From NCBI RefSeq assembly GCF_054482525.1, contig NZ_CM137006.1: DNA of 64,000 nucleotides, one strand, 5' to 3'. How positions within the stretch are numbered: position 1 is the stretch's first letter; the number at the start of each line of letters is the position of its first letter. Under the pieces are notes generated by a model. The model worked only from the letters and a program-made list of their open reading frames with translations. It searched no databases and was not told the origin of the DNA. The translations under genes and the position numbers were made by a program. Shown one piece after another: positions 6,640-14,805 of this stretch.

Positions 6640-7558
6640 CACGTTATTAACGTTACGCGACGTCCATATCAATTTCCCGGCCCGAAAAAACTGGCTTGGT
6701 AAAACTACGGAACATGTTCATGCCATCAATGGTATTGATTTACAGATCCGTCGTGGTGAAACCTTAGGGATCGTCGGTGAGTCAGGCTGCGGCAAAAGCA
6801 CCCTCGCACAGCTTTTAATGGGTATGCTGCAACCGAGCCACGGGCAGTACATCCGTTCAGGATCACAACGCATTATGCAGATGGTGTTTCAGGACCCGCT
6901 CTCTTCGCTTAATCCACGCTTACCGGTGTGGCGCATCATCACGGAACCGCTCTGGATTGCTAAGCGTAGTAGTGAACAACAGCGGCGAGCGTTGGCAGAG
7001 GAGCTGGCTGTGCAGGTGGGTATTCGTCCGGAGTATCTCGACCGCTTGCCTCATGCGTTTTCCGGCGGGCAGCGGCAACGTATCGCCATTGCCAGAGCAC
7101 TCTCTTCGCAGCCTGACGTGATTGTGCTTGATGAACCAACCTCGGCGCTGGATATCTCCGTGCAGGCGCAGATCCTCAATTTACTGGTAACGCTACAGGA
7201 AAATCGCGAGCTGACTTATGTGTTGATTTCACACAATGTCTCGGTGATACGTCATATGAGCGATCGGGTGGCGGTAATGTATCTCGGACAGATTGTGGAA
7301 CTAGGAGACGCGCAACAGGTGCTGACAGCTCCGGCACATCCATACACCCGATTATTGCTGGATTCCCTCCCCGCCATTGATAAACCGCTGGAGGAAGAAT
7401 GGGCATTACGTAAAACGGATCTACCAGGAAACCGCACGTTGCCACAAGGCTGTTTTTTCCGTGAACGTTGCCCTCTGGCAACCGACGGATGTGAAGTCCG
7501 GCAATCATTAACAATAAGGGAGGACGGACGTGAGATCCGGTGCTGGCGGGCGCTGTAG
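6632..7558 (+). CDS. ddpF: ABC transporter ATP-binding protein
   Basis: ORF 6578..7558; GTG at 6632 gives VSDTLLTLRD N-terminus after GGAGG RBS; Walker A GESGCGKST, signature FSGGQRQR. Confidence 0.85.
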   Translation: MSDTLLTLRDVHINFPARKNWLGKTTEHVHAINGIDLQIRRGETLGIVGESGCGKSTLAQLLMGMLQPSHGQYIRSGSQRIMQMVFQDPLSSLNPRLPVWRIITEPLWIAKRSSEQQRRALAEELAVQVGIRPEYLDRLPHAFSGGQRQRIAIARALSSQPDVIVLDEPTSALDISVQAQILNLLVTLQENRELTYVLISHNVSVIRHMSDRVAVMYLGQIVELGDAQQVLTAPAHPYTRLLLDSLPAIDKPLEEEWALRKTDLPGNRTLPQGCFFRERCPLATDGCEVRQSLTIREDGREIRCWRAL

Positions 7559-7572
7559 GACGCGGCATCCGG

Positions 7573-8484
7573 CTATTGCATGTCTGCGGAAACGTTATGC
7601 GTCATAGTTTTTTTTAACGTTTCCATCAACGCCTGCGCCGCAGTAGAAAGCTTATGGTGTGACGAACGCAGTACGCCTACTCGTCGCTCAATCACTGGAT
7701 TATCCAGTTCCAGACACACTGCGCCCAGTTCGCTCATCTGCCTGCGGCACAGCGCAGGCACAGCGCTTCCTCCCAAACCGTTTGCCACCAGCCGCCCAAC
7801 CGTAACCAGTTGATGGCTTTCCAGCGCCACTTCCAGTTGCGTTCCACTTTGTGCCAACTGCTCCTCCAGCATCAACCTGACGGCTGACGGTCGCTGGAGG
7901 GTGATAAAATCGAGCGTCAGCAAATCCCGCCAACTCACGCGTTGCCGATTTGCCAGTCGTGAATCGGCTGGAACAATAGCGACAAACCGATCCACGCCCA
8001 GTGGGGTAAAATGCACATGGCCGCAATAGTCAGGTTCAAAGGCAATACCCATCTCCACACGCCCTTCGCTCACCATTTCGATCACCTGCTCATTCACCAC
8101 ATCGTGCACGGTGACATTAATCCCTGAATAACAATCGCGGAAGGTTTTCAGCACCGGAGGCAGAACGTTGGCTGCAAATGACGGCATCGCTGCCACCGAG
8201 ACTTTGCCCCGCCTGAGCGTGAATCGCTGACGCATGGCCTCCTCAGTGTTATCCCAGTCAGCCAGCAAAGGCCGTGCCATCGACAATAGCGTTTCCCCCT
8301 CCTGGGTTAATGTCACTTTTCGCGTAGTACGCAGCAGTAAAGCGCCCCCTAAGGCATCTTCCAGTCCTTTAATGGCAAGACTTAGCGCAGGCTGCGACAT
8401 ATTCAGCCGTTCACTGGCATGGGCAAAGTTCAGAGTGTGAGCTACCGCTAAAAACGCGCGTAACTGTTTGATGCTCATTTTCAT
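7573..8484 (-). CDS. LysR-family transcriptional regulator
   Basis: 303 aa; N-terminal HTH (LRAFLAVAHTLNFAHASERLNMSQPALSLAIKGLE) typical of LTTRs; divergent from the downstream catabolic operon. Confidence 0.85.
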   Translation of the reverse strand: MKMSIKQLRAFLAVAHTLNFAHASERLNMSQPALSLAIKGLEDALGGALLLRTTRKVTLTQEGETLLSMARPLLADWDNTEEAMRQRFTLRRGKVSVAAMPSFAANVLPPVLKTFRDCYSGINVTVHDVVNEQVIEMVSEGRVEMGIAFEPDYCGHVHFTPLGVDRFVAIVPADSRLANRQRVSWRDLLTLDFITLQRPSAVRLMLEEQLAQSGTQLEVALESHQLVTVGRLVANGLGGSAVPALCRRQMSELGAVCLELDNPVIERRVGVLRSSHHKLSTAAQALMETLKKTMTHNVSADMQ

Positions 8485-8625
8485 CTGGCACTCCGTTAAC
8501 CTACTGAATACATTTAATTAACATTATATTGATAAATAATACAAATGAATGAGTCACAAATTTAAAATTAACAAATCATTTTTTGCCCTTAATGATGTTG
8601 AAAAGGACAACTGGAGGGCAACTGT
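8485..8625. promoter_or_regulatory. divergent promoter/operator region between LysR regulator and CoA-transferase operon
   Basis: 141 bp AT-rich intergenic region with TTAATTAA palindrome and A/T runs; classic LTTR divergent arrangement. Confidence 0.4.
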
Positions 8626-9333
8626 ATGGCTGGGTTGGATAAACGGGTCGCTACGTATCACGAGGCGCTTGAAGGACTTACCAATGAGATGACGATTCTG
8701 GCAGGAGGTTTTGGCCTGTGCGGCATCCCGGAGAATCTGATTGCTGAAGTTCGCCACCGTGGAGTAACCGGATTAACGGTGGTTTCCAATAACTGTGGCG
8801 TAGATGGTTTTGGACTGGGTGTACTACTGGAAAGCCGACAGATCCGTAAAGTCGTCGCTTCTTATGTTGGCGAGAATGCTTTGTTTGAAAAACAGGTGCT
8901 TAACGGCGAACTGGAGGCGATTCTCACACCACAAGGAACCCTGGCAGAACAACTGCGCGCAGGCGGCGCGGGTATCCCGGCGTTCTTTACTGCCACCGGT
9001 TACGGTACTCCCGTTGCCGAAGGGAAAGAAGTCCGCGAATTCAACGGTCGCCCGTACATCATGGAACAGGCTATCACCGGTGATTTTGCCCTGGTCAAAG
9101 GCTGGAAAGCCGACTGGTACGGCAACGTGATTTATCGTCATACCGCGCAAAACTTCAACCCACTGATGGCGGCTGCCGGAAAAATCACCGTGGTGGAAGT
9201 GGAAGAAATAGTGCCACCTGGTGAACTTGATCCTGCCGCTATCCATACCCCGGGGATTTTTGTTAATCGCGTCATTCAGGGGCAATTTGAAAAACGCATT
9301 GAACAACGCACCCTTAGCCGCAAAGGAGCCTGA
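8626..9333 (+). CDS. 3-oxoacid CoA-transferase subunit A (AtoD/ScoA-like)
   Basis: 235 aa; translation has the family N-terminus ([20 protein letters not shown]) and glycine-rich core. Confidence 0.8.
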
Positions 9334-9335
9334 CC

Positions 9336-9992
9336 ATGTTAACCCGTGAACAAATGGCGATGCGAGTCGCCCGCGAATTGCGCGATGGCTATTACGTCAA
9401 TCTCGGCATTGGTATCCCGACCCTGGTGGCAAACTACATTCCTGACGGGATGGATGTGATGTTGCAGTCAGAAAACGGTTTGCTGGGAATGGGCGCATTT
9501 CCTACGGAAGACGAACTGGACGCCGACATGATTAATGCCGGTAAACAAACCGTTACCGCGCGGAAAGGCGCGGCAATTTTCGATTCGGCGCAATCATTCG
9601 CCATGATCCGTGGCGGTCATGTGGATCTGACTGTACTTGGCGCATTTGAAGTGGATGTGAATGGCAACATTGCCTCATGGATGATCCCCGGCAAGATGGT
9701 TAAAGGCATGGGCGGTGCCATGGATCTGGTTGCCGGTGCCGAGAATATTATTGTGGTAATGACCCACGCCTCCAAATCCGGCGAATCCAAACTGCTTCCT
9801 GACTGTACCCTTCCGTTGACCGGCGCCGGATGCATCAAACGCGTCTTAACCGACCTTGCTCTGCTGGAAATTGCTGACGGAGCTTTCATTCTGCGCGAGC
9901 GCGCGCCGGGAATCAGCGTTGCGGAAATCATCGCCAAAACCGCCGGTAAGTTGTTTGTGCCGGAACATGTCCCGGAAATGCAATTCAACTGA
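9336..9992 (+). CDS. 3-oxoacid CoA-transferase subunit B (AtoA/ScoB-like)
   Basis: 218 aa; starts 3 nt after subunit A stop; family B translation (GMGGAMDLVAGA). Confidence 0.8.
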   Translation: MLTREQMAMRVARELRDGYYVNLGIGIPTLVANYIPDGMDVMLQSENGLLGMGAFPTEDELDADMINAGKQTVTARKGAAIFDSAQSFAMIRGGHVDLTVLGAFEVDVNGNIASWMIPGKMVKGMGGAMDLVAGAENIIVVMTHASKSGESKLLPDCTLPLTGAGCIKRVLTDLALLEIADGAFILRERAPGISVAEIIAKTAGKLFVPEHVPEMQFN

Positions 9993-10001
9993 GGAATCAC
10001 C

Positions 10002-11207
10002 ATGCAGGACGTTGTTATTGTTGCCGCTACGCGCACACCGATTGGCTGTTTTCATGGCGCTCTCGCCCCACTTTCTGCGGTTGATCTCGGCGCTGCCACC
10101 ATCCGTTCATTGCTGGAGAAAACAGCACTTGCAGCAGAACAGATCGACGAAGTGATTTTTGGTCAGGTCCTGACTGCCGGAAGCGGACAAAATCCGGCAC
10201 GGCAATCGGCGCTCAAAGCCGGGTTAAGCCACGATACACCCGCCGTTACCATCAACCTGGTATGTGGTTCCGGTCTGAAAGCAGTACACCAGGCCGTACA
10301 GGCGATCCGTTGCGGTGATGCACAGATAATTATCGCAGGTGGCCAGGAAAGCATGAGTAACGCGCCCTATTTTATTGATGGCGCACGGGCAGGTTTACGC
10401 CTCGGGCATACCAGCATGAAAGACAGCGTGGTGCATGACGGACTATGGGACGCTTTCAATGATTACCACATGGGCATTACTGCAGAAAACCTGGCGCAAA
10501 AATATGCCATCAGTCGCGAGCGACAGGACACATTCGCGCTACGTTCTCAGCAAAAAGCCGCTGCCGCAATGGAAGCCGGGCGCTTTGCAGACGAAATTAC
10601 TCCGGTCAGCGTACCACAAGGTAAAAAACCACCACGCAGGGTAAATACCGACGAACAACCACGTTCCGGGACGCAACTGGAAAAACTAGCACAACTGAAA
10701 CCGGCCTTTCTTCCGGGGGCGGGAAGCGTCACCGCAGGAAATGCTTCTTCCATCAATGATGGTGCCGCCGCAGTCATGTTAATGCGCGCCAGCAAAGCTG
10801 CCGAACTTGGCCTCCCAGTGCTGGCTCGGGTGGCTGGTTATGCCGTTTCTGGCGTCGATCCTGCCTTTATGGGCATTGGTCCGGTCGCCGCTACCCGCGA
10901 ATGTCTTAAGCGTTGCGGATGGACGCTGGAAGATATTGATCTTATTGAAGCCAACGAGGCTTTCGCAGCGCAGGCGCTGGCCGTTGGCGACGAACTGAAC
11001 TGGGATTGCGACAAAGTGAATGTTAACGGCGGCGCAATCGCACTTGGGCATCCTATTGGCGCTTCCGGTTGCCGCATTCTGGTCACTCTCATTTATGAAA
11101 TGGCGCGACGTAATGCGCAAAAAGGGCTGGCGACGCTGTGCGTCGGTGGCGGTCAGGGCGTGGCGCTGACACTGGAAAGAACCACAGGAGAACACCATGC
11201 AAACTGA
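10002..11207 (+). CDS. acetyl-CoA C-acetyltransferase (thiolase II)
   Basis: 401 aa; thiolase translation with active-site regions ([21 protein letters not shown]). Confidence 0.85.
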
Positions 11208-12120
11208 ACAATTTGCGGTACTGGGCGCCGGATTGATGGGCGTGGGGATTGCCACTCATTTCGCCCGCTTTGGTCATGATATCTGGCTGTACGATACCGA
11301 GCAGAGCCGGATTGCAGAAATCCACGTAGTTGCAGGCGGAATTCTTGATGAGCTGATTAGCTGCGAACAGTTTACTGCCCCGGAAAAAGAGAATGTGCTT
11401 AAACGTCTGCACGGCACGACTTCTCTTGCAGACATCGCCGACTCGCAACTACTGATTGAGGCGATCCCGGAGCGACTTGAACTAAAACACGCATTATATA
11501 CCGAGCTTGAAACGCTTATTTCTCCTGAGGCCATTGTCGCCAGCAATACCAGCGGTCTGCCGCCCGATGATCTGGCCGCGAAGATGCGCTACCCGCAACG
11601 ACTGCTGATCGCCCATTTCTGGCATCCGCCGCACTTCATTCCACTTGTGGAGATTATCCCCGGCAGCGTTACCGAGCCAAAGCATTTGCACTGGCTGCAG
11701 CACTTGCTTGTGTCACTGCAACTGGAAGCAGTGTTGCTGGATCGCGCTGCGCCAGGATTTGTCGGCAACCGTCTGCAATTTGCACTGTTGCGTGAAGCCC
11801 TGCATATCGTAAAAAGCGGCATCGCCAGTGCAGAAGTGGTGGATCAGGTGATGCGCGCCTCGCTTGGGCGACGTTATGCCATGGTCGGCCCGCTGGAGGC
11901 CGCCGACATGACCGGACTTTCGACGGTGCAGGATATTTGTCGCCATCTGCTCCCTGAACTAGCGACTGGCAGCGACATGATGTCATTAGTTGCCGAAAAA
12001 GTGGAACGTGGAGACATCGGCGTACGTAGCGGTCAGGGATTTTACTGCTGGGATGAATCGCGGAAGCAGTACATCCAGCAGCGTCGGGAACATCAACTTC
12101 GCTTCGCCCTTAAACCATAA
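11197..12120 (+). CDS. 3-hydroxyacyl-CoA dehydrogenase family protein (NAD-binding)
   Basis: 307 aa; N-terminal Rossmann motif [12 protein letters not shown]; overlaps thiolase stop by 11 nt. Confidence 0.7.
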
Positions 12121-12165
12121 CTTCTCTCGCTGTACCCACTATAACAACGATATTGAGGAGTCCCG

Positions 12166-13557
12166 ATGAGTGTATTAATCGCCCTTGCCGCGCTTGGGCT
12201 GCTAATGCTGGCAGCCTATCGCGGATACAGCGTTATCCTTTTTGCCCCCATCGCAGCATTAGGCGCTGTTCTTGTCACCGATCCGGGGGCCGTTGGCCCA
12301 GCATTTACCGGCCTGTTCATGGAAAAAATGGTCGGCTTCGTGAAATTGTACTTCCCGGTGTTTCTGCTCGGGGCCGTGTTCGGAAAACTGATTGAACTTT
12401 CAGGATTTTCTCGTTCGATTGTCGCTGCTGCAATCAACATTCTCGGCCGGCGGCATGCGATTCCGGTGATTGTGCTGGTATGTGCATTACTCACCTATGG
12501 CGGAGTGTCGCTGTTTGTGGTGGCATTTGCCGTTTATCCGTTCGCGGCTGAACTGTTCCGCCAGAGTAACATCCCAAAACGACTTATACCGGCAACGGTG
12601 GCCCTGGGGGCATTCTCTTTTACTATGGACGCTCTGCCCGGCACGCCACAAATTCAGAACATTATTCCTACCAGTTTCTTTGGCACCAACGCCTGGGCCG
12701 CGCCGTGGCTGGGGCTTATTGGTTCACTGTTTATCATTGCCGTCGGGCTTATCTATCTGGAGCGGCAGCGTCGTAAAGCGCAGGCAAAAAATGAAGGTTA
12801 CGGCACAGAGTTACTTAATGAACCTGAAACACCAGATAACATCAATTTACCGAACCCACTCATTGCGATTTCACCATTGATTCTGGTGGGGCTGTTGAAC
12901 TTGTTGTTTACCTGGTGGATCCCTGTTTGGTACGGTGCGAGCCACCAACTGGAGTTGCCGGGACTTGCCGCCCCGATTACCACAGATGTCGCCAAAATCA
13001 CCGCAATCTGGGCCGTCGAAGCTGCGCTCATTGCCGGAATTTTGCTGGTAGTGATTTTTGGATATCGCAATATTCATGGAAGACTGGCAGAAGGAAGCCG
13101 TACAGCGGTAGGCGGCGCAATTCTGGCTGCGATGAACACCGCCTCAGAATATGGCTTCGGTGCGGTTATCGCCGCCCTACCCGGTTTTCTGGTGCTCTCA
13201 AAGGCGCTGGCCGCCATTCCTGATCCATTACTCAACGAAGCCATCAGCATCACCACACTTGCCGGAATTACCGGTTCAGCGTCCGGCGGGATGAGTATTG
13301 CTCTTGCGGCGATGTCCGACACTTTTATTGCCGCTGCGCACGCTGCCAATATTCCACTGGAAGTTTTTCACCGCGTGGCATCTATGGCCAGTGGCGGCAT
13401 GGATACATTGCCCCATAACGGCGCTGTGATCACCCTGCTGGCAATTACTGGGCTGAGTCACCGTCAGGCTTACGGCGGCATCTTCGCAATTACGATCATT
13501 AAAAGTCTGGCCGTGCTGTTTATCATCGGCGTGTACTACACCACCGGCATTGTCTAA
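12166..13557 (+). CDS. multi-pass permease, probably GntP-family hydroxy-acid (3-hydroxybutyrate) transporter
   Basis: 463 aa, highly hydrophobic with central charged loop; family assignment by resemblance only. Confidence 0.55.
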   Translation: MSVLIALAALGLLMLAAYRGYSVILFAPIAALGAVLVTDPGAVGPAFTGLFMEKMVGFVKLYFPVFLLGAVFGKLIELSGFSRSIVAAAINILGRRHAIPVIVLVCALLTYGGVSLFVVAFAVYPFAAELFRQSNIPKRLIPATVALGAFSFTMDALPGTPQIQNIIPTSFFGTNAWAAPWLGLIGSLFIIAVGLIYLERQRRKAQAKNEGYGTELLNEPETPDNINLPNPLIAISPLILVGLLNLLFTWWIPVWYGASHQLELPGLAAPITTDVAKITAIWAVEAALIAGILLVVIFGYRNIHGRLAEGSRTAVGGAILAAMNTASEYGFGAVIAALPGFLVLSKALAAIPDPLLNEAISITTLAGITGSASGGMSIALAAMSDTFIAAAHAANIPLEVFHRVASMASGGMDTLPHNGAVITLLAITGLSHRQAYGGIFAITIIKSLAVLFIIGVYYTTGIV

Positions 13558-13568
13558 GGAAAATCATC

Positions 13569-14339
13569 ATGAATTTACAAGGTAAAACTGCGCTGGTGAC
13601 GGGGTCCACCAGCGGTATCGGACTCGGTATTGCTCAGACACTGGCAAACGCTGGCGCGCAAGTGATCCTCAACGGCTTCGGTGATGTTGACGCGGCAATC
13701 AATGCGGTTTCTCGTATGGGTAAAACGCCTGGCTATCATGAGGCAGACCTCAGCGATGAATCGCAAATTATCAACATGATGGCCTACGCACGGCGGGAAT
13801 TTGGCGGTGTGGACATTCTGGTGAATAACGCCGGGATCCAGTATGTCTCCCCGGTTGAATCTTTCCCTGTAGAAAAATGGAACGCCATTATCGCTATCAA
13901 TCTCTCTTCTGTCTTTCACACCACGCGTCTGGCACTGCCAGAAATGCGCACTCGTAACTGGGGTCGGATCATTAACATTGCCTCTGTGCATGGGCTGGTA
14001 GCGTCGAAAGACAAATCAGCTTATGTTGCGGCAAAACATGGCGTGGTGGGACTCACAAAGACCATTGCTCTGGAAACTGCGCAGACGGGTATTACCTGCA
14101 ACGCGCTCTGCCCTGGCTGGGTGCTGACGCCGCTGGTACAACAGCAGATTGATAAGCGCATTGCGCAAGGCGAAGATGCGGAAAGCGCGCGTGACGCCTT
14201 ACTGGCAGAAAAACAGCCTTCTCGTGAATTTGTGACTCCGCAACAACTGGGTGAACTGGCGCTGTTTCTCTGTTCGGATGCGGCAGCACAAGTGCGTGGG
14301 GTGGCGTGGAATATGGATGGCGGTTGGGTAGCGCAGTAA
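13569..14339 (+). CDS. bdhA: D-3-hydroxybutyrate dehydrogenase (SDR family)
   Basis: 256 aa; TGSTSGIGLGIA cofactor motif, NNAGIQ, YVAAKHG catalytic motif; close to remembered BdhA sequences. Confidence 0.8.
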   Translation: MNLQGKTALVTGSTSGIGLGIAQTLANAGAQVILNGFGDVDAAINAVSRMGKTPGYHEADLSDESQIINMMAYARREFGGVDILVNNAGIQYVSPVESFPVEKWNAIIAINLSSVFHTTRLALPEMRTRNWGRIINIASVHGLVASKDKSAYVAAKHGVVGLTKTIALETAQTGITCNALCPGWVLTPLVQQQIDKRIAQGEDAESARDALLAEKQPSREFVTPQQLGELALFLCSDAAAQVRGVAWNMDGGWVAQ

Positions 14340-14346
14340 GTGTTCG

Positions 14347-14368
14347 CCGGATGACACGTCATCCGGCA
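14347..14368. terminator. bidirectional hairpin between convergent bdhA and osmC
   Basis: perfect inverted repeat GCCGGATGAC-AC-GTCATCCGGC in the 34 bp gap. Confidence 0.5.
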
Positions 14369-14373
14369 ATGCT

Positions 14374-14805
14374 TTACGATTTCAACTGGTAATCAAGCGT
14401 AATTTCAGCTTTCAGTACCTGAGAAACCGGGCATCCTGCTTTTGCTTTCTGGATGATGCCGTCAAAGGTGGAGGTATCAATACCCGGCACCGCAACTTCG
14501 CTCTTCAGTGCGATTTTAGTAATCGCAAAACCGGCATCCACTTTATCCAGCGACACATCGGCGGTGGTATCAATCGATGTTGGCGTGAATCCCGCTTCCC
14601 CCAGCATTAATGAAAGCGCCATTGAGAAACATGCGGCATGCGCTGCGCCAATCAGTTCTTCAGGGTTGGTTCCTTTTTCGCCTTCAAAACGCGTGTTAAA
14701 TCCATACGGCTGTTGGTTCAGCACGCCACTCTCGGTGGATACTGTTCCCTTCCCGCGTTTGATATCGCCTTCCCAGTGTGCCTGACCTTTCTTATGGATT
14801 GTCAT
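14374..14805 (-). CDS. osmC: osmotically inducible peroxiredoxin
   Basis: 143 aa; translation matches remembered OsmC (MTIHKKGQAHWEGDIKRGKG...). Confidence 0.9.
   Translation of the reverse strand: MTIHKKGQAHWEGDIKRGKGTVSTESGVLNQQPYGFNTRFEGEKGTNPEELIGAAHAACFSMALSLMLGEAGFTPTSIDTTADVSLDKVDAGFAITKIALKSEVAVPGIDTSTFDGIIQKAKAGCPVSQVLKAEITLDYQLKS

Follow-up and report, generated by a model that had tools for sequence, protein, structure and literature searches.

A probable LysR-controlled operon for 3-hydroxybutyrate and acetoacetate use in the ddpF/osmC slot of Escherichia coli

Results

A predicted 3-hydroxybutyrate and acetoacetate operon between ddpF and osmC

The stretch of DNA analysed here (the window, 64,000 nucleotides of contig NZ_CM137006.1, RefSeq assembly GCF_054482525.1) is 100% identical to Escherichia coli 19KM1776, and carries between ddpF (ending at 7558) and osmC (14374-14805, minus strand) a cassette of seven genes, the same seven that appear in the RefSeq annotation of that strain. 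From the gene content and from the comparison of loci, it is probable that this cassette is a six-gene operon for the uptake and catabolism of 3-hydroxybutyrate and acetoacetate controlled by a LysR-type regulator, and that it occupies an ancestral slot, its E. coli haplotype having been moved by homologous exchange.

The last gene of the cassette (13569-14339, plus strand) encodes a 256-aa short-chain dehydrogenase/reductase (SDR) that scored above the cut-offs of PRK12429 (371 bits, cut-off 258) and TIGR01963 (343.5 bits, cut-off 307). Its product is around 86% identical (E 1.4e-146) to CF3HBD (Protein Data Bank (PDB) ID 5YSS), an enzyme from a Citrobacter-like metagenomic fosmid for which 3-hydroxybutyrate dehydrogenation activity was measured, in a study of the isolated enzyme and its promiscuous lactam-cyclase activity (PMC6265244). 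By homology, the last gene product is thus a D-3-hydroxybutyrate dehydrogenase of the BdhA type, and its closeness to an active enzyme provides the strongest support for the function inferred for the whole cassette.

The genes for subunits A (8626-9333, plus strand, 235 aa) and B (9336-9992, plus strand, 218 aa) of a 3-oxoacid CoA-transferase lie side by side, 2 nt apart, and their products exceed the pcaI/scoA and pcaJ/scoB cut-offs (TIGR02429, 244.8 bits, cut-off 128.5, for subunit A; TIGR02428, 327 bits, cut-off 243.55, for subunit B). Subunit A stayed under the cut-off of the AtoD equivalog NF007394 (198.9 bits, cut-off 315), and its nearest structures are subunit A of succinyl-CoA:3-ketoacid CoA-transferases (SCOT; 3rrl and 3cdk, E around 1e-92), with the E. 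coli AtoD structure well behind them (E 1e-50), in such a way that the enzyme is of the ScoA/SCOT type. The following gene (10002-11207, plus strand, 401 aa) encodes an acetyl-CoA C-acetyltransferase (acetoacetyl-CoA thiolase), with 501.1 bits in TIGR01930 (cut-off 240.55) and a score that narrowly missed the narrower PRK05656 (677 bits, cut-off 688). It is followed by genes for a 307-aa NAD dehydrogenase of the 3HCDH family (11197-12120, plus strand) and for a 463-aa secondary permease (12166-13557, plus strand), the putative 3-hydroxybutyrate importer.

In the proposed route, 3-hydroxybutyrate would be imported by the permease, the D-(R)-isomer would be oxidised to acetoacetate by the BdhA-type SDR with NAD+, the SCOT-type CoA-transferase made of subunits A and B would move CoA from succinyl-CoA onto acetoacetate, and the thiolase would convert acetoacetyl-CoA into two molecules of acetyl-CoA. 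The 307-aa enzyme would be an optional add-on that oxidises the free acid of the L-(S)-isomer to acetoacetate, in such a way that both enantiomers converge, this being the least certain step. Finally, the LysR protein, acting on TTAAC boxes, would switch on the operon in response to a pathway metabolite. A first-pass annotation of this DNA had proposed a complete route from external 3-hydroxybutyrate to acetyl-CoA, and the sequence of conversions through acetoacetate and acetoacetyl-CoA fits every homology test, as far as homology can tell. Fitness data from Pseudomonas putida tie a D-3-hydroxybutyrate dehydrogenase, its adjacent permease and a 3-oxoacid CoA-transferase to the use of 3-hydroxybutyrate (bioRxiv 10.1101/2020.07.04.188060).

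Gene packing, regulator and control region

The same annotation had described six co-directional genes with a divergent LysR gene, tightly packed and forming a single transcription unit. All seven open reading frames are present at the positions given here, and the plus-strand intergenic spacers are, in order, 2, 9, -11, 45 and 11 nt, the negative value being an 11-nt overlap between the thiolase gene and that of the 307-aa dehydrogenase. Shine-Dalgarno-like GGAG, GAGG or AGGA motifs precede every plus-strand start codon. The operon-like packing is therefore as described, and the single transcript itself is a reading from the sequence.

The regulatory gene, lysR (7573-8484, minus strand, 303 aa), is separated from the CoA-transferase A gene by a divergent control region of 141 bp (8485-8625). 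More than 25 NCBIfam models of the LysR family align with the whole of its product (best E 1e-48), each with a score below its equivalog cut-off, and the PF00126 and PF03466 domains are both present in the orthologues from Pantoea and Providencia, which are 70% and 77% identical, respectively. These alignments, together with the domains of the orthologues and the divergent position of the gene next to a conserved 141-bp spacer, place the protein among the LysR-type regulators. When compared with the copies of other E. coli and of Escherichia, lysR in this strain lacks 1 nt, a G adjoining position 7607 and a T8 run; this deletion alters the last three residues and adds seven more, giving 303 aa versus the 296-aa allele of most E. 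coli; the change touches only the extreme C-terminus.

A consensus scan detected a sigma-70-like promoter in the control region, TTAACA-17-AATGAT, at 8568-8596 on the plus strand, and three TTAAC boxes were found at 8496-8500, 8518-8522 and 8568-8572. The boxes and both promoter hexamers are kept in Escherichia, Citrobacter, Klebsiella, Raoultella, Serratia, Enterobacter and Pluralibacter, and the 141-bp spacer is 85-90% identical to that of Citrobacter, compared with 74-82% for the coding genes. It is presumably to these TTAAC boxes that the LysR protein binds.

At the other end, the 34-nt spacer between bdhA and osmC, two genes that converge, contains a GC-rich palindrome, GCCGGATGAC-a-GTCATCCGGC (14347-14367), which is a candidate bidirectional terminator. 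Its predicted fold has -21.8 kcal/mol on the plus strand (z = -3.8) and -19.9 kcal/mol on the minus strand (z = -3.1), and its right arm is present in the K-12 ddpF-osmC spacer too. Folding of the 45-nt gap upstream of the permease gene revealed no structure comparable to this palindrome, and an Rfam scan detected no RNA element within the cassette. Because of the promoter-like site, the conserved TTAAC boxes, the conserved spacer and the hairpin at the end, a reasonable reading is that the six genes would form one transcription unit under LysR control. The sole Rfam match in the whole window was a SECIS_3 selenocysteine insertion element (23034-23092, minus strand, 84 bits), at the place expected for fdnG from the gene order of related loci, and is an ordinary one.

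The permease

The permease gave no match to Pfam, NCBIfam or PDB sequences beyond a chance hit to DUF3169 (E 0.026). The label "GntP family permease" comes from source annotation only, the Pfam GntP_permease profile giving no match, and one source names a homologue "D-beta-hydroxybutyrate permease". Since no curated transporter family was matched, its substrate is inferred only from the gene neighbourhood, which weighs against the import step of the proposed route. This neighbourhood is shared by relatives: the permease is 89-96% identical within Enterobacteriaceae and 81-83% identical to proteins of Pseudomonas and Pantoea, whose genes directly adjoin a bdhA-like SDR gene. The protein looks like a member of a widespread transporter family that has no curated model. 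An AlphaFold model of it, built from a shallow alignment, reached a pLDDT of only 41.

Two observations were made on its relatives. The permease stands out from the neighbouring genes by its much stronger conservation, as seen with the Pseudomonas and Pantoea loci (L047 and L048) and with locus L041. A metagenome contig (P0124) encodes a predicted protein of 597 aa, 98% identical to the permease and with SDR domains too, which probably results from permease-bdhA read-through or from an artefact (assembly or frameshift).

Comparison with known systems

In Pseudomonas, as in the cassette, a dehydrogenase leads to acetoacetate, followed by a 3-oxoacid CoA-transferase and a thiolase. The P. putida genes are PP_3073 (dehydrogenase), PP_3074 (permease), PP_3075 (sigma-54 regulator) and atoAB (PP_3122-3), so that, unlike the E. 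coli cassette, they are split over two loci, depend on a sigma-54 activator and not on a LysR protein, and follow another order. A Pseudomonas locus found in our comparison (L047, 5415-12826) holds all six structural genes, in another order and with a PAS/sigma-54 activator; the identities to the cassette proteins are 81% for the permease, 75% for BdhA, 62 and 64% for the CoA-transferase subunits, 69% for the thiolase and 59% for the 307-aa dehydrogenase.

The dhcR-dhcAB-atoB-PA2002 genes of P. aeruginosa also have a LysR gene divergent from CoA-transferase A and B and thiolase genes (PMC6235884), and a beta-keto acid is the reported signal to which DhcR responds by inducing dhcAB (PMC3602303). 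The likeness is one of layout, by description, and this operon differs in being assigned to carnitine catabolism and in having an AtoE-like transporter. The atoSC/atoDAEB genes of E. coli K-12 likewise combine a CoA-transferase, a thiolase and a transporter for acetoacetate use, but they are under two-component control, include no 3-hydroxybutyrate dehydrogenase and use a transporter of another family; moreover, AtoDA is an acetate CoA-transferase, whereas the cassette protein misses the AtoD equivalog. Judged from its genes, the cassette would work like the Pseudomonas bdhA/permease pair and atoAB/dhcAB-atoB-like genes merged into a single LysR-controlled operon. Literature searches found no publication on this operon in E. 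coli.

Distribution and history of the slot

Matches to the cassette were found in 231 of 5426 complete E. coli genomes (around 4%), always in the chromosome, and 230 of them hold at least 80% of it. In all the listed genomes without it, the two flanks together cover 1241-1258 bp, constituting a near-uniform empty site, and in K-12 MG1655 ddpF is followed by a 55-bp spacer and osmC. The plasmid database PLSDB gave no close copy; its only matches were copies around 73% identical in four records of Klebsiella pneumoniae, and the sizes of two of these records, 5.4 Mb and 1.0 Mb, exceed those of ordinary plasmids.

One genome of each species was scanned for the dehydrogenase, which was found in 33 loci. 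The ddpF/osmC slot also holds the full cassette in around 20 species of Citrobacter, and a divergent lineage of Escherichia (L006) has it there too. Klebsiella, Raoultella, Serratia, Enterobacter, Pluralibacter and Providencia have these seven genes in unchanged order, but next to other neighbours. In Klebsiella the cassette adjoins budR-budABC; in the K. pneumoniae locus L003 (5847-15516) its immediate neighbours are a second regulator gene of the LysR family and budA and alsS, both acetoin genes. A permease cluster named after K. pneumoniae has 4763 member sequences, which suggests that the seven-gene cassette is common in this species. A Pantoea variant (L048, 4333-10177) consists of the genes for LysR, CoA-transferase A and B, thiolase, permease and bdhA, without a 3HCDH-family gene.

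At the nucleotide level, cassette and flanks are 74-82% and 73-85% identical to Citrobacter, and 91-94% and 89-93% identical to the L006 lineage, respectively. This equal divergence of the two indicates that the slot is ancestral and was inherited vertically. A different pattern was detected with other cassette-bearing E. coli (500-bp windows), where the flanks are 94-98.6% identical and the cassette mostly 99-100%. In pairwise comparisons of four strains the flanks showed 96.9-98.5% and the cassette 99.0-99.9%, and with Escherichia sp. E1V33 the values were 88-95% and 97-100%. The identity steps, against other E. coli and against E1V33, are sharp, at around 7500 and 14500. All the E. coli copies are around 92% identical to the L006 version and therefore constitute one haplogroup, and the presence of a low-diversity haplotype on more diverged flanks argues for lateral exchange by homologous recombination. 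These comparisons point to one cassette haplotype spread among E. coli by homologous exchange and not by a mobile element; it would have moved between backgrounds, and to or from a cryptic Escherichia lineage.

The sharp steps, and the lack of the cassette in around 96% of complete E. coli genomes, could also be read as the trace of a recent foreign island, brought to ddpF/osmC by a mobile element whose source lies outside the Escherichia/Citrobacter lineage. We consider this very improbable, as the annotation shows no integrase, insertion sequence or tRNA gene within the cassette or immediately next to it, no direct or inverted flanking repeats were found beyond chance level, and the GC content (0.47-0.57 inside, 0.52-0.55 in the flanks) shows no anomaly. 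Insertion by a mobile element is thus largely refuted, and the same slot is filled in Citrobacter and in the divergent Escherichia lineage with a divergence equal to that of the flanks. GC-rich motifs resembling repetitive extragenic palindromes (REP-like), CATCCGGC and GCCGGATG, are found at both borders (7559-7573 and 14347-14367), in spacers between convergent genes, and similar palindromes occur in these spacers in Citrobacter (both borders) and in the K-12 empty site. The 8-nt CATCCGGC present at both borders was considered as an insertion mark and discarded, as it belongs to these REP-like palindromes and is also seen in the Citrobacter spacers.

The cassette had been annotated, from the adjacency of ddpF and osmC in K-12, as strain-specific cargo inserted between these genes. 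The comparison of the junction, empty in K-12 and filled in around 20 Citrobacter species, together with the count of carriers, bears out the adjacency and the accessory character in E. coli; the word "inserted" is only partly apt, the slot being ancestral and homologous exchange taking the place of insertion by a mobile element.

Two local features of the E. coli copies were also observed. The 5' part of the thiolase gene (10001-10500) is around 97% identical to other E. coli copies, versus 99-100% for the rest of the cassette, and forms a small mosaic patch inside an otherwise uniform haplotype. In E. coli BEC1-S17-ESBL-07 (L004, 8595-9380) the cassette is truncated by a deletion that starts within the permease gene, takes in bdhA, osmC, bdm, sra and maeA and ends just upstream of adhP.

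The 307-aa dehydrogenase

The 307-aa enzyme belongs to the 3HCDH superfamily (Pfam 3HCDH_N, E 3.8e-46; 3HCDH, E 1.4e-18). Its residues S119, H140, E152 and N191, the catalytic Ser, His, Glu and Asn, are invariant in its subfamily, as is a GRR motif at 224-226. Every NCBIfam equivalog was missed, the best being FHMPC_DH NF042925 (220.5 bits, cut-off 500) and the L-gulonate 3-dehydrogenase-like PRK06129 (199 bits, cut-off 347). Models of (S)-3-hydroxybutyryl-CoA dehydrogenase (Hbd) gave 181 bits for a cut-off of 408 (PRK05808), 151 for 420 (PRK07530) and 161 for 319 (PRK07819), and those of L-carnitine dehydrogenase scored still lower, 112 for 414 (PRK07066) and 142 for 592 (PRK07531). Classification by NCBIfam of more distant relatives of the dehydrogenase left no protein above any curated cut-off. 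The top PDB match by sequence was 4om8, the FHMPC dehydrogenase.

The substrate loop of the protein (around 221-233) aligns without gaps to those of L-gulonate 3-dehydrogenase (3ado, 3f3s) and FHMPC dehydrogenase, whereas in the CoA-dependent Hbd enzymes it is three residues shorter and presents N-H-P-M opposite R-R-Y-A of the 307-aa protein, which thus lacks their short LGxxHPMGP loop. The residue opposite Arg226 in rabbit L-gulonate dehydrogenase is Arg231. Of the 115 nearest family representatives, all have a loop of this length and 110 have the Arg. L-gulonate 3-dehydrogenase/lambda-crystallin (CRYL1) and FHMPC dehydrogenase share with the cassette enzyme the 3HCDH fold, the catalytic residues and the loop length, and their substrates are free acids rather than CoA esters, the product of L-gulonate 3-dehydrogenase being a free beta-keto acid (PMC12337341). 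Both differ from it in their physiological substrates, in an overall identity of 26-38% and in curated models that it misses; the specific likeness to L-gulonate 3-dehydrogenase is only the local loop and Arg signature, FHMPC dehydrogenase having a Lys in that position.

Regarding the gene context, a 59%-identical orthologue of 307 aa lies in the Pseudomonas cluster together with the sigma-54 regulator, permease, bdhA, CoA-transferase and thiolase genes, and the Pantoea cassette is otherwise complete without this gene. The closest cluster representatives outside Enterobacterales are at most 49% identical. In locus L041, the gene of a 49%-identical homologue overlaps by 4 nt that of a 67%-identical permease, forming a two-gene unit. 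The gene contexts of three homologues of 41-46% identity (P0249, P0251 and P0253) gave no functional clue.

From the loop, the Arg and the context, our favoured reading, a tentative one to which we give a little less than an even chance, is that the 307-aa enzyme acts as a free-acid L-(S)-3-hydroxybutyrate dehydrogenase. With similar caution, and slightly less firmly, the protein may found a subfamily of such enzymes, kin to L-gulonate 3-dehydrogenase and not to Hbd, that was repeatedly recruited into D-3-hydroxybutyrate clusters in Enterobacterales and Pseudomonas. Several points weigh against this assignment. The role of Arg226 in binding a carboxylate is our assumption, taken from work on the rabbit enzyme. 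In a Foldseek search with the AlphaFold model (pLDDT 85), CoA-dependent Hbd enzymes came first (TM-score 0.82-0.85), FHMPC dehydrogenase being only 14th and L-gulonate dehydrogenase 17th; the search did not separate free-acid from CoA-ester enzymes. The 11-nt overlap with the thiolase gene is, moreover, a pairing typical of CoA-ester pathways. Literature searches, within the library available, found no bacterial paper on a 3HCDH-family (S)-3-hydroxybutyrate dehydrogenase; such an enzyme has reportedly been found in Desulfotomaculum.

The same fold ranking, the overlap and the intact catalytic residues of the family are what an ordinary (S)-3-hydroxybutyryl-CoA dehydrogenase would show, in which case L-3-hydroxybutyrate would need prior conversion into its CoA ester, through the CoA-transferase or some other enzyme, before its oxidation to acetoacetyl-CoA; Sinorhizobium meliloti uses L-3-hydroxybutyrate through such a CoA-ester route, with an acetoacetyl-CoA synthetase. 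We regard this as possible, though doubtful, given that all Hbd and HAD models of NCBIfam scored far under their cut-offs, that the loop is three residues longer than in both groups, with an invariant Arg-Arg replacing N-H-P-M, and that the 3.3-kb contig with the permease and homologue unit holds no CoA-activating enzyme. In addition, SCOT-type transferases (EC 2.8.3.5) are described for 3-oxoacids, not for hydroxy acids. The lack of any curated family for the 307-aa enzyme leaves room for another function, in which the enzyme would extend the range of the operon to further beta-hydroxy acids of short chain, such as 3-hydroxyvalerate, 3-hydroxyisobutyrate or acids resembling L-threonate, instead of L-3-hydroxybutyrate, having in mind that EC 1.1.1.45 enzymes such as L-gulonate 3-dehydrogenase accept several other L-3-hydroxy acids. 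This seems unlikely, as 3-hydroxybutyrate genes are its only recurrent partners and no extra downstream enzymes for other products accompany it.

The first-pass annotation had suggested that the additional dehydrogenase could handle both stereoisomers or a carnitine-like compound. The former suggestion is backed by the context, the loop and the Arg, whereas the latter was rejected. A cassette for carnitine/dehydrocarnitine catabolism, with the 307-aa enzyme as carnitine dehydrogenase, would mirror the gene layout of the P. aeruginosa dhc operon described above, and L-carnitine dehydrogenases do belong to the same dehydrogenase family. The carnitine-dehydrogenase scores are, however, far below their cut-offs and under even those of the Hbd models, the cassettes in the around 35 loci examined contain no beta-keto-acid cleavage enzyme, betaine/carnitine transporter or glycine-betaine genes, and a bona fide 3-hydroxybutyrate dehydrogenase is encoded in every cassette examined. 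The published carnitine genes of Citrobacter CJ25 are other genes, and we hold a role in carnitine catabolism to be scarcely credible.

Discussion

The cassette is an ordinary accessory operon for a well-known pathway. Its enzymology is textbook apart from the 307-aa enzyme, the sole member of the cassette's dehydrogenases to which a role can be given only tentatively. If this enzyme is a free-acid L-(S)-3-hydroxybutyrate dehydrogenase, the cassette would be complete for both enantiomers of 3-hydroxybutyrate, which would be of importance to gut bacteria when the ketone bodies they encounter are racemic or come from the host.

If the proposed function is correct, around 1 in 25 sequenced E. coli would have a dedicated and regulated operon, absent from K-12, with which they could feed on 3-hydroxybutyrate and acetoacetate. 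Among the carriers are Shiga-toxin strains of serotype O145:H28 and PCN033, a pathogen of pigs, whereas in Klebsiella and Citrobacter the operon is widespread. For E. coli it would be a modest niche trait, of use for example in the gut during ketosis or in environments rich in poly-3-hydroxybutyrate, and the locus would provide a clean example of an ancestral locus lost by most of a species and spread again by homologous recombination.

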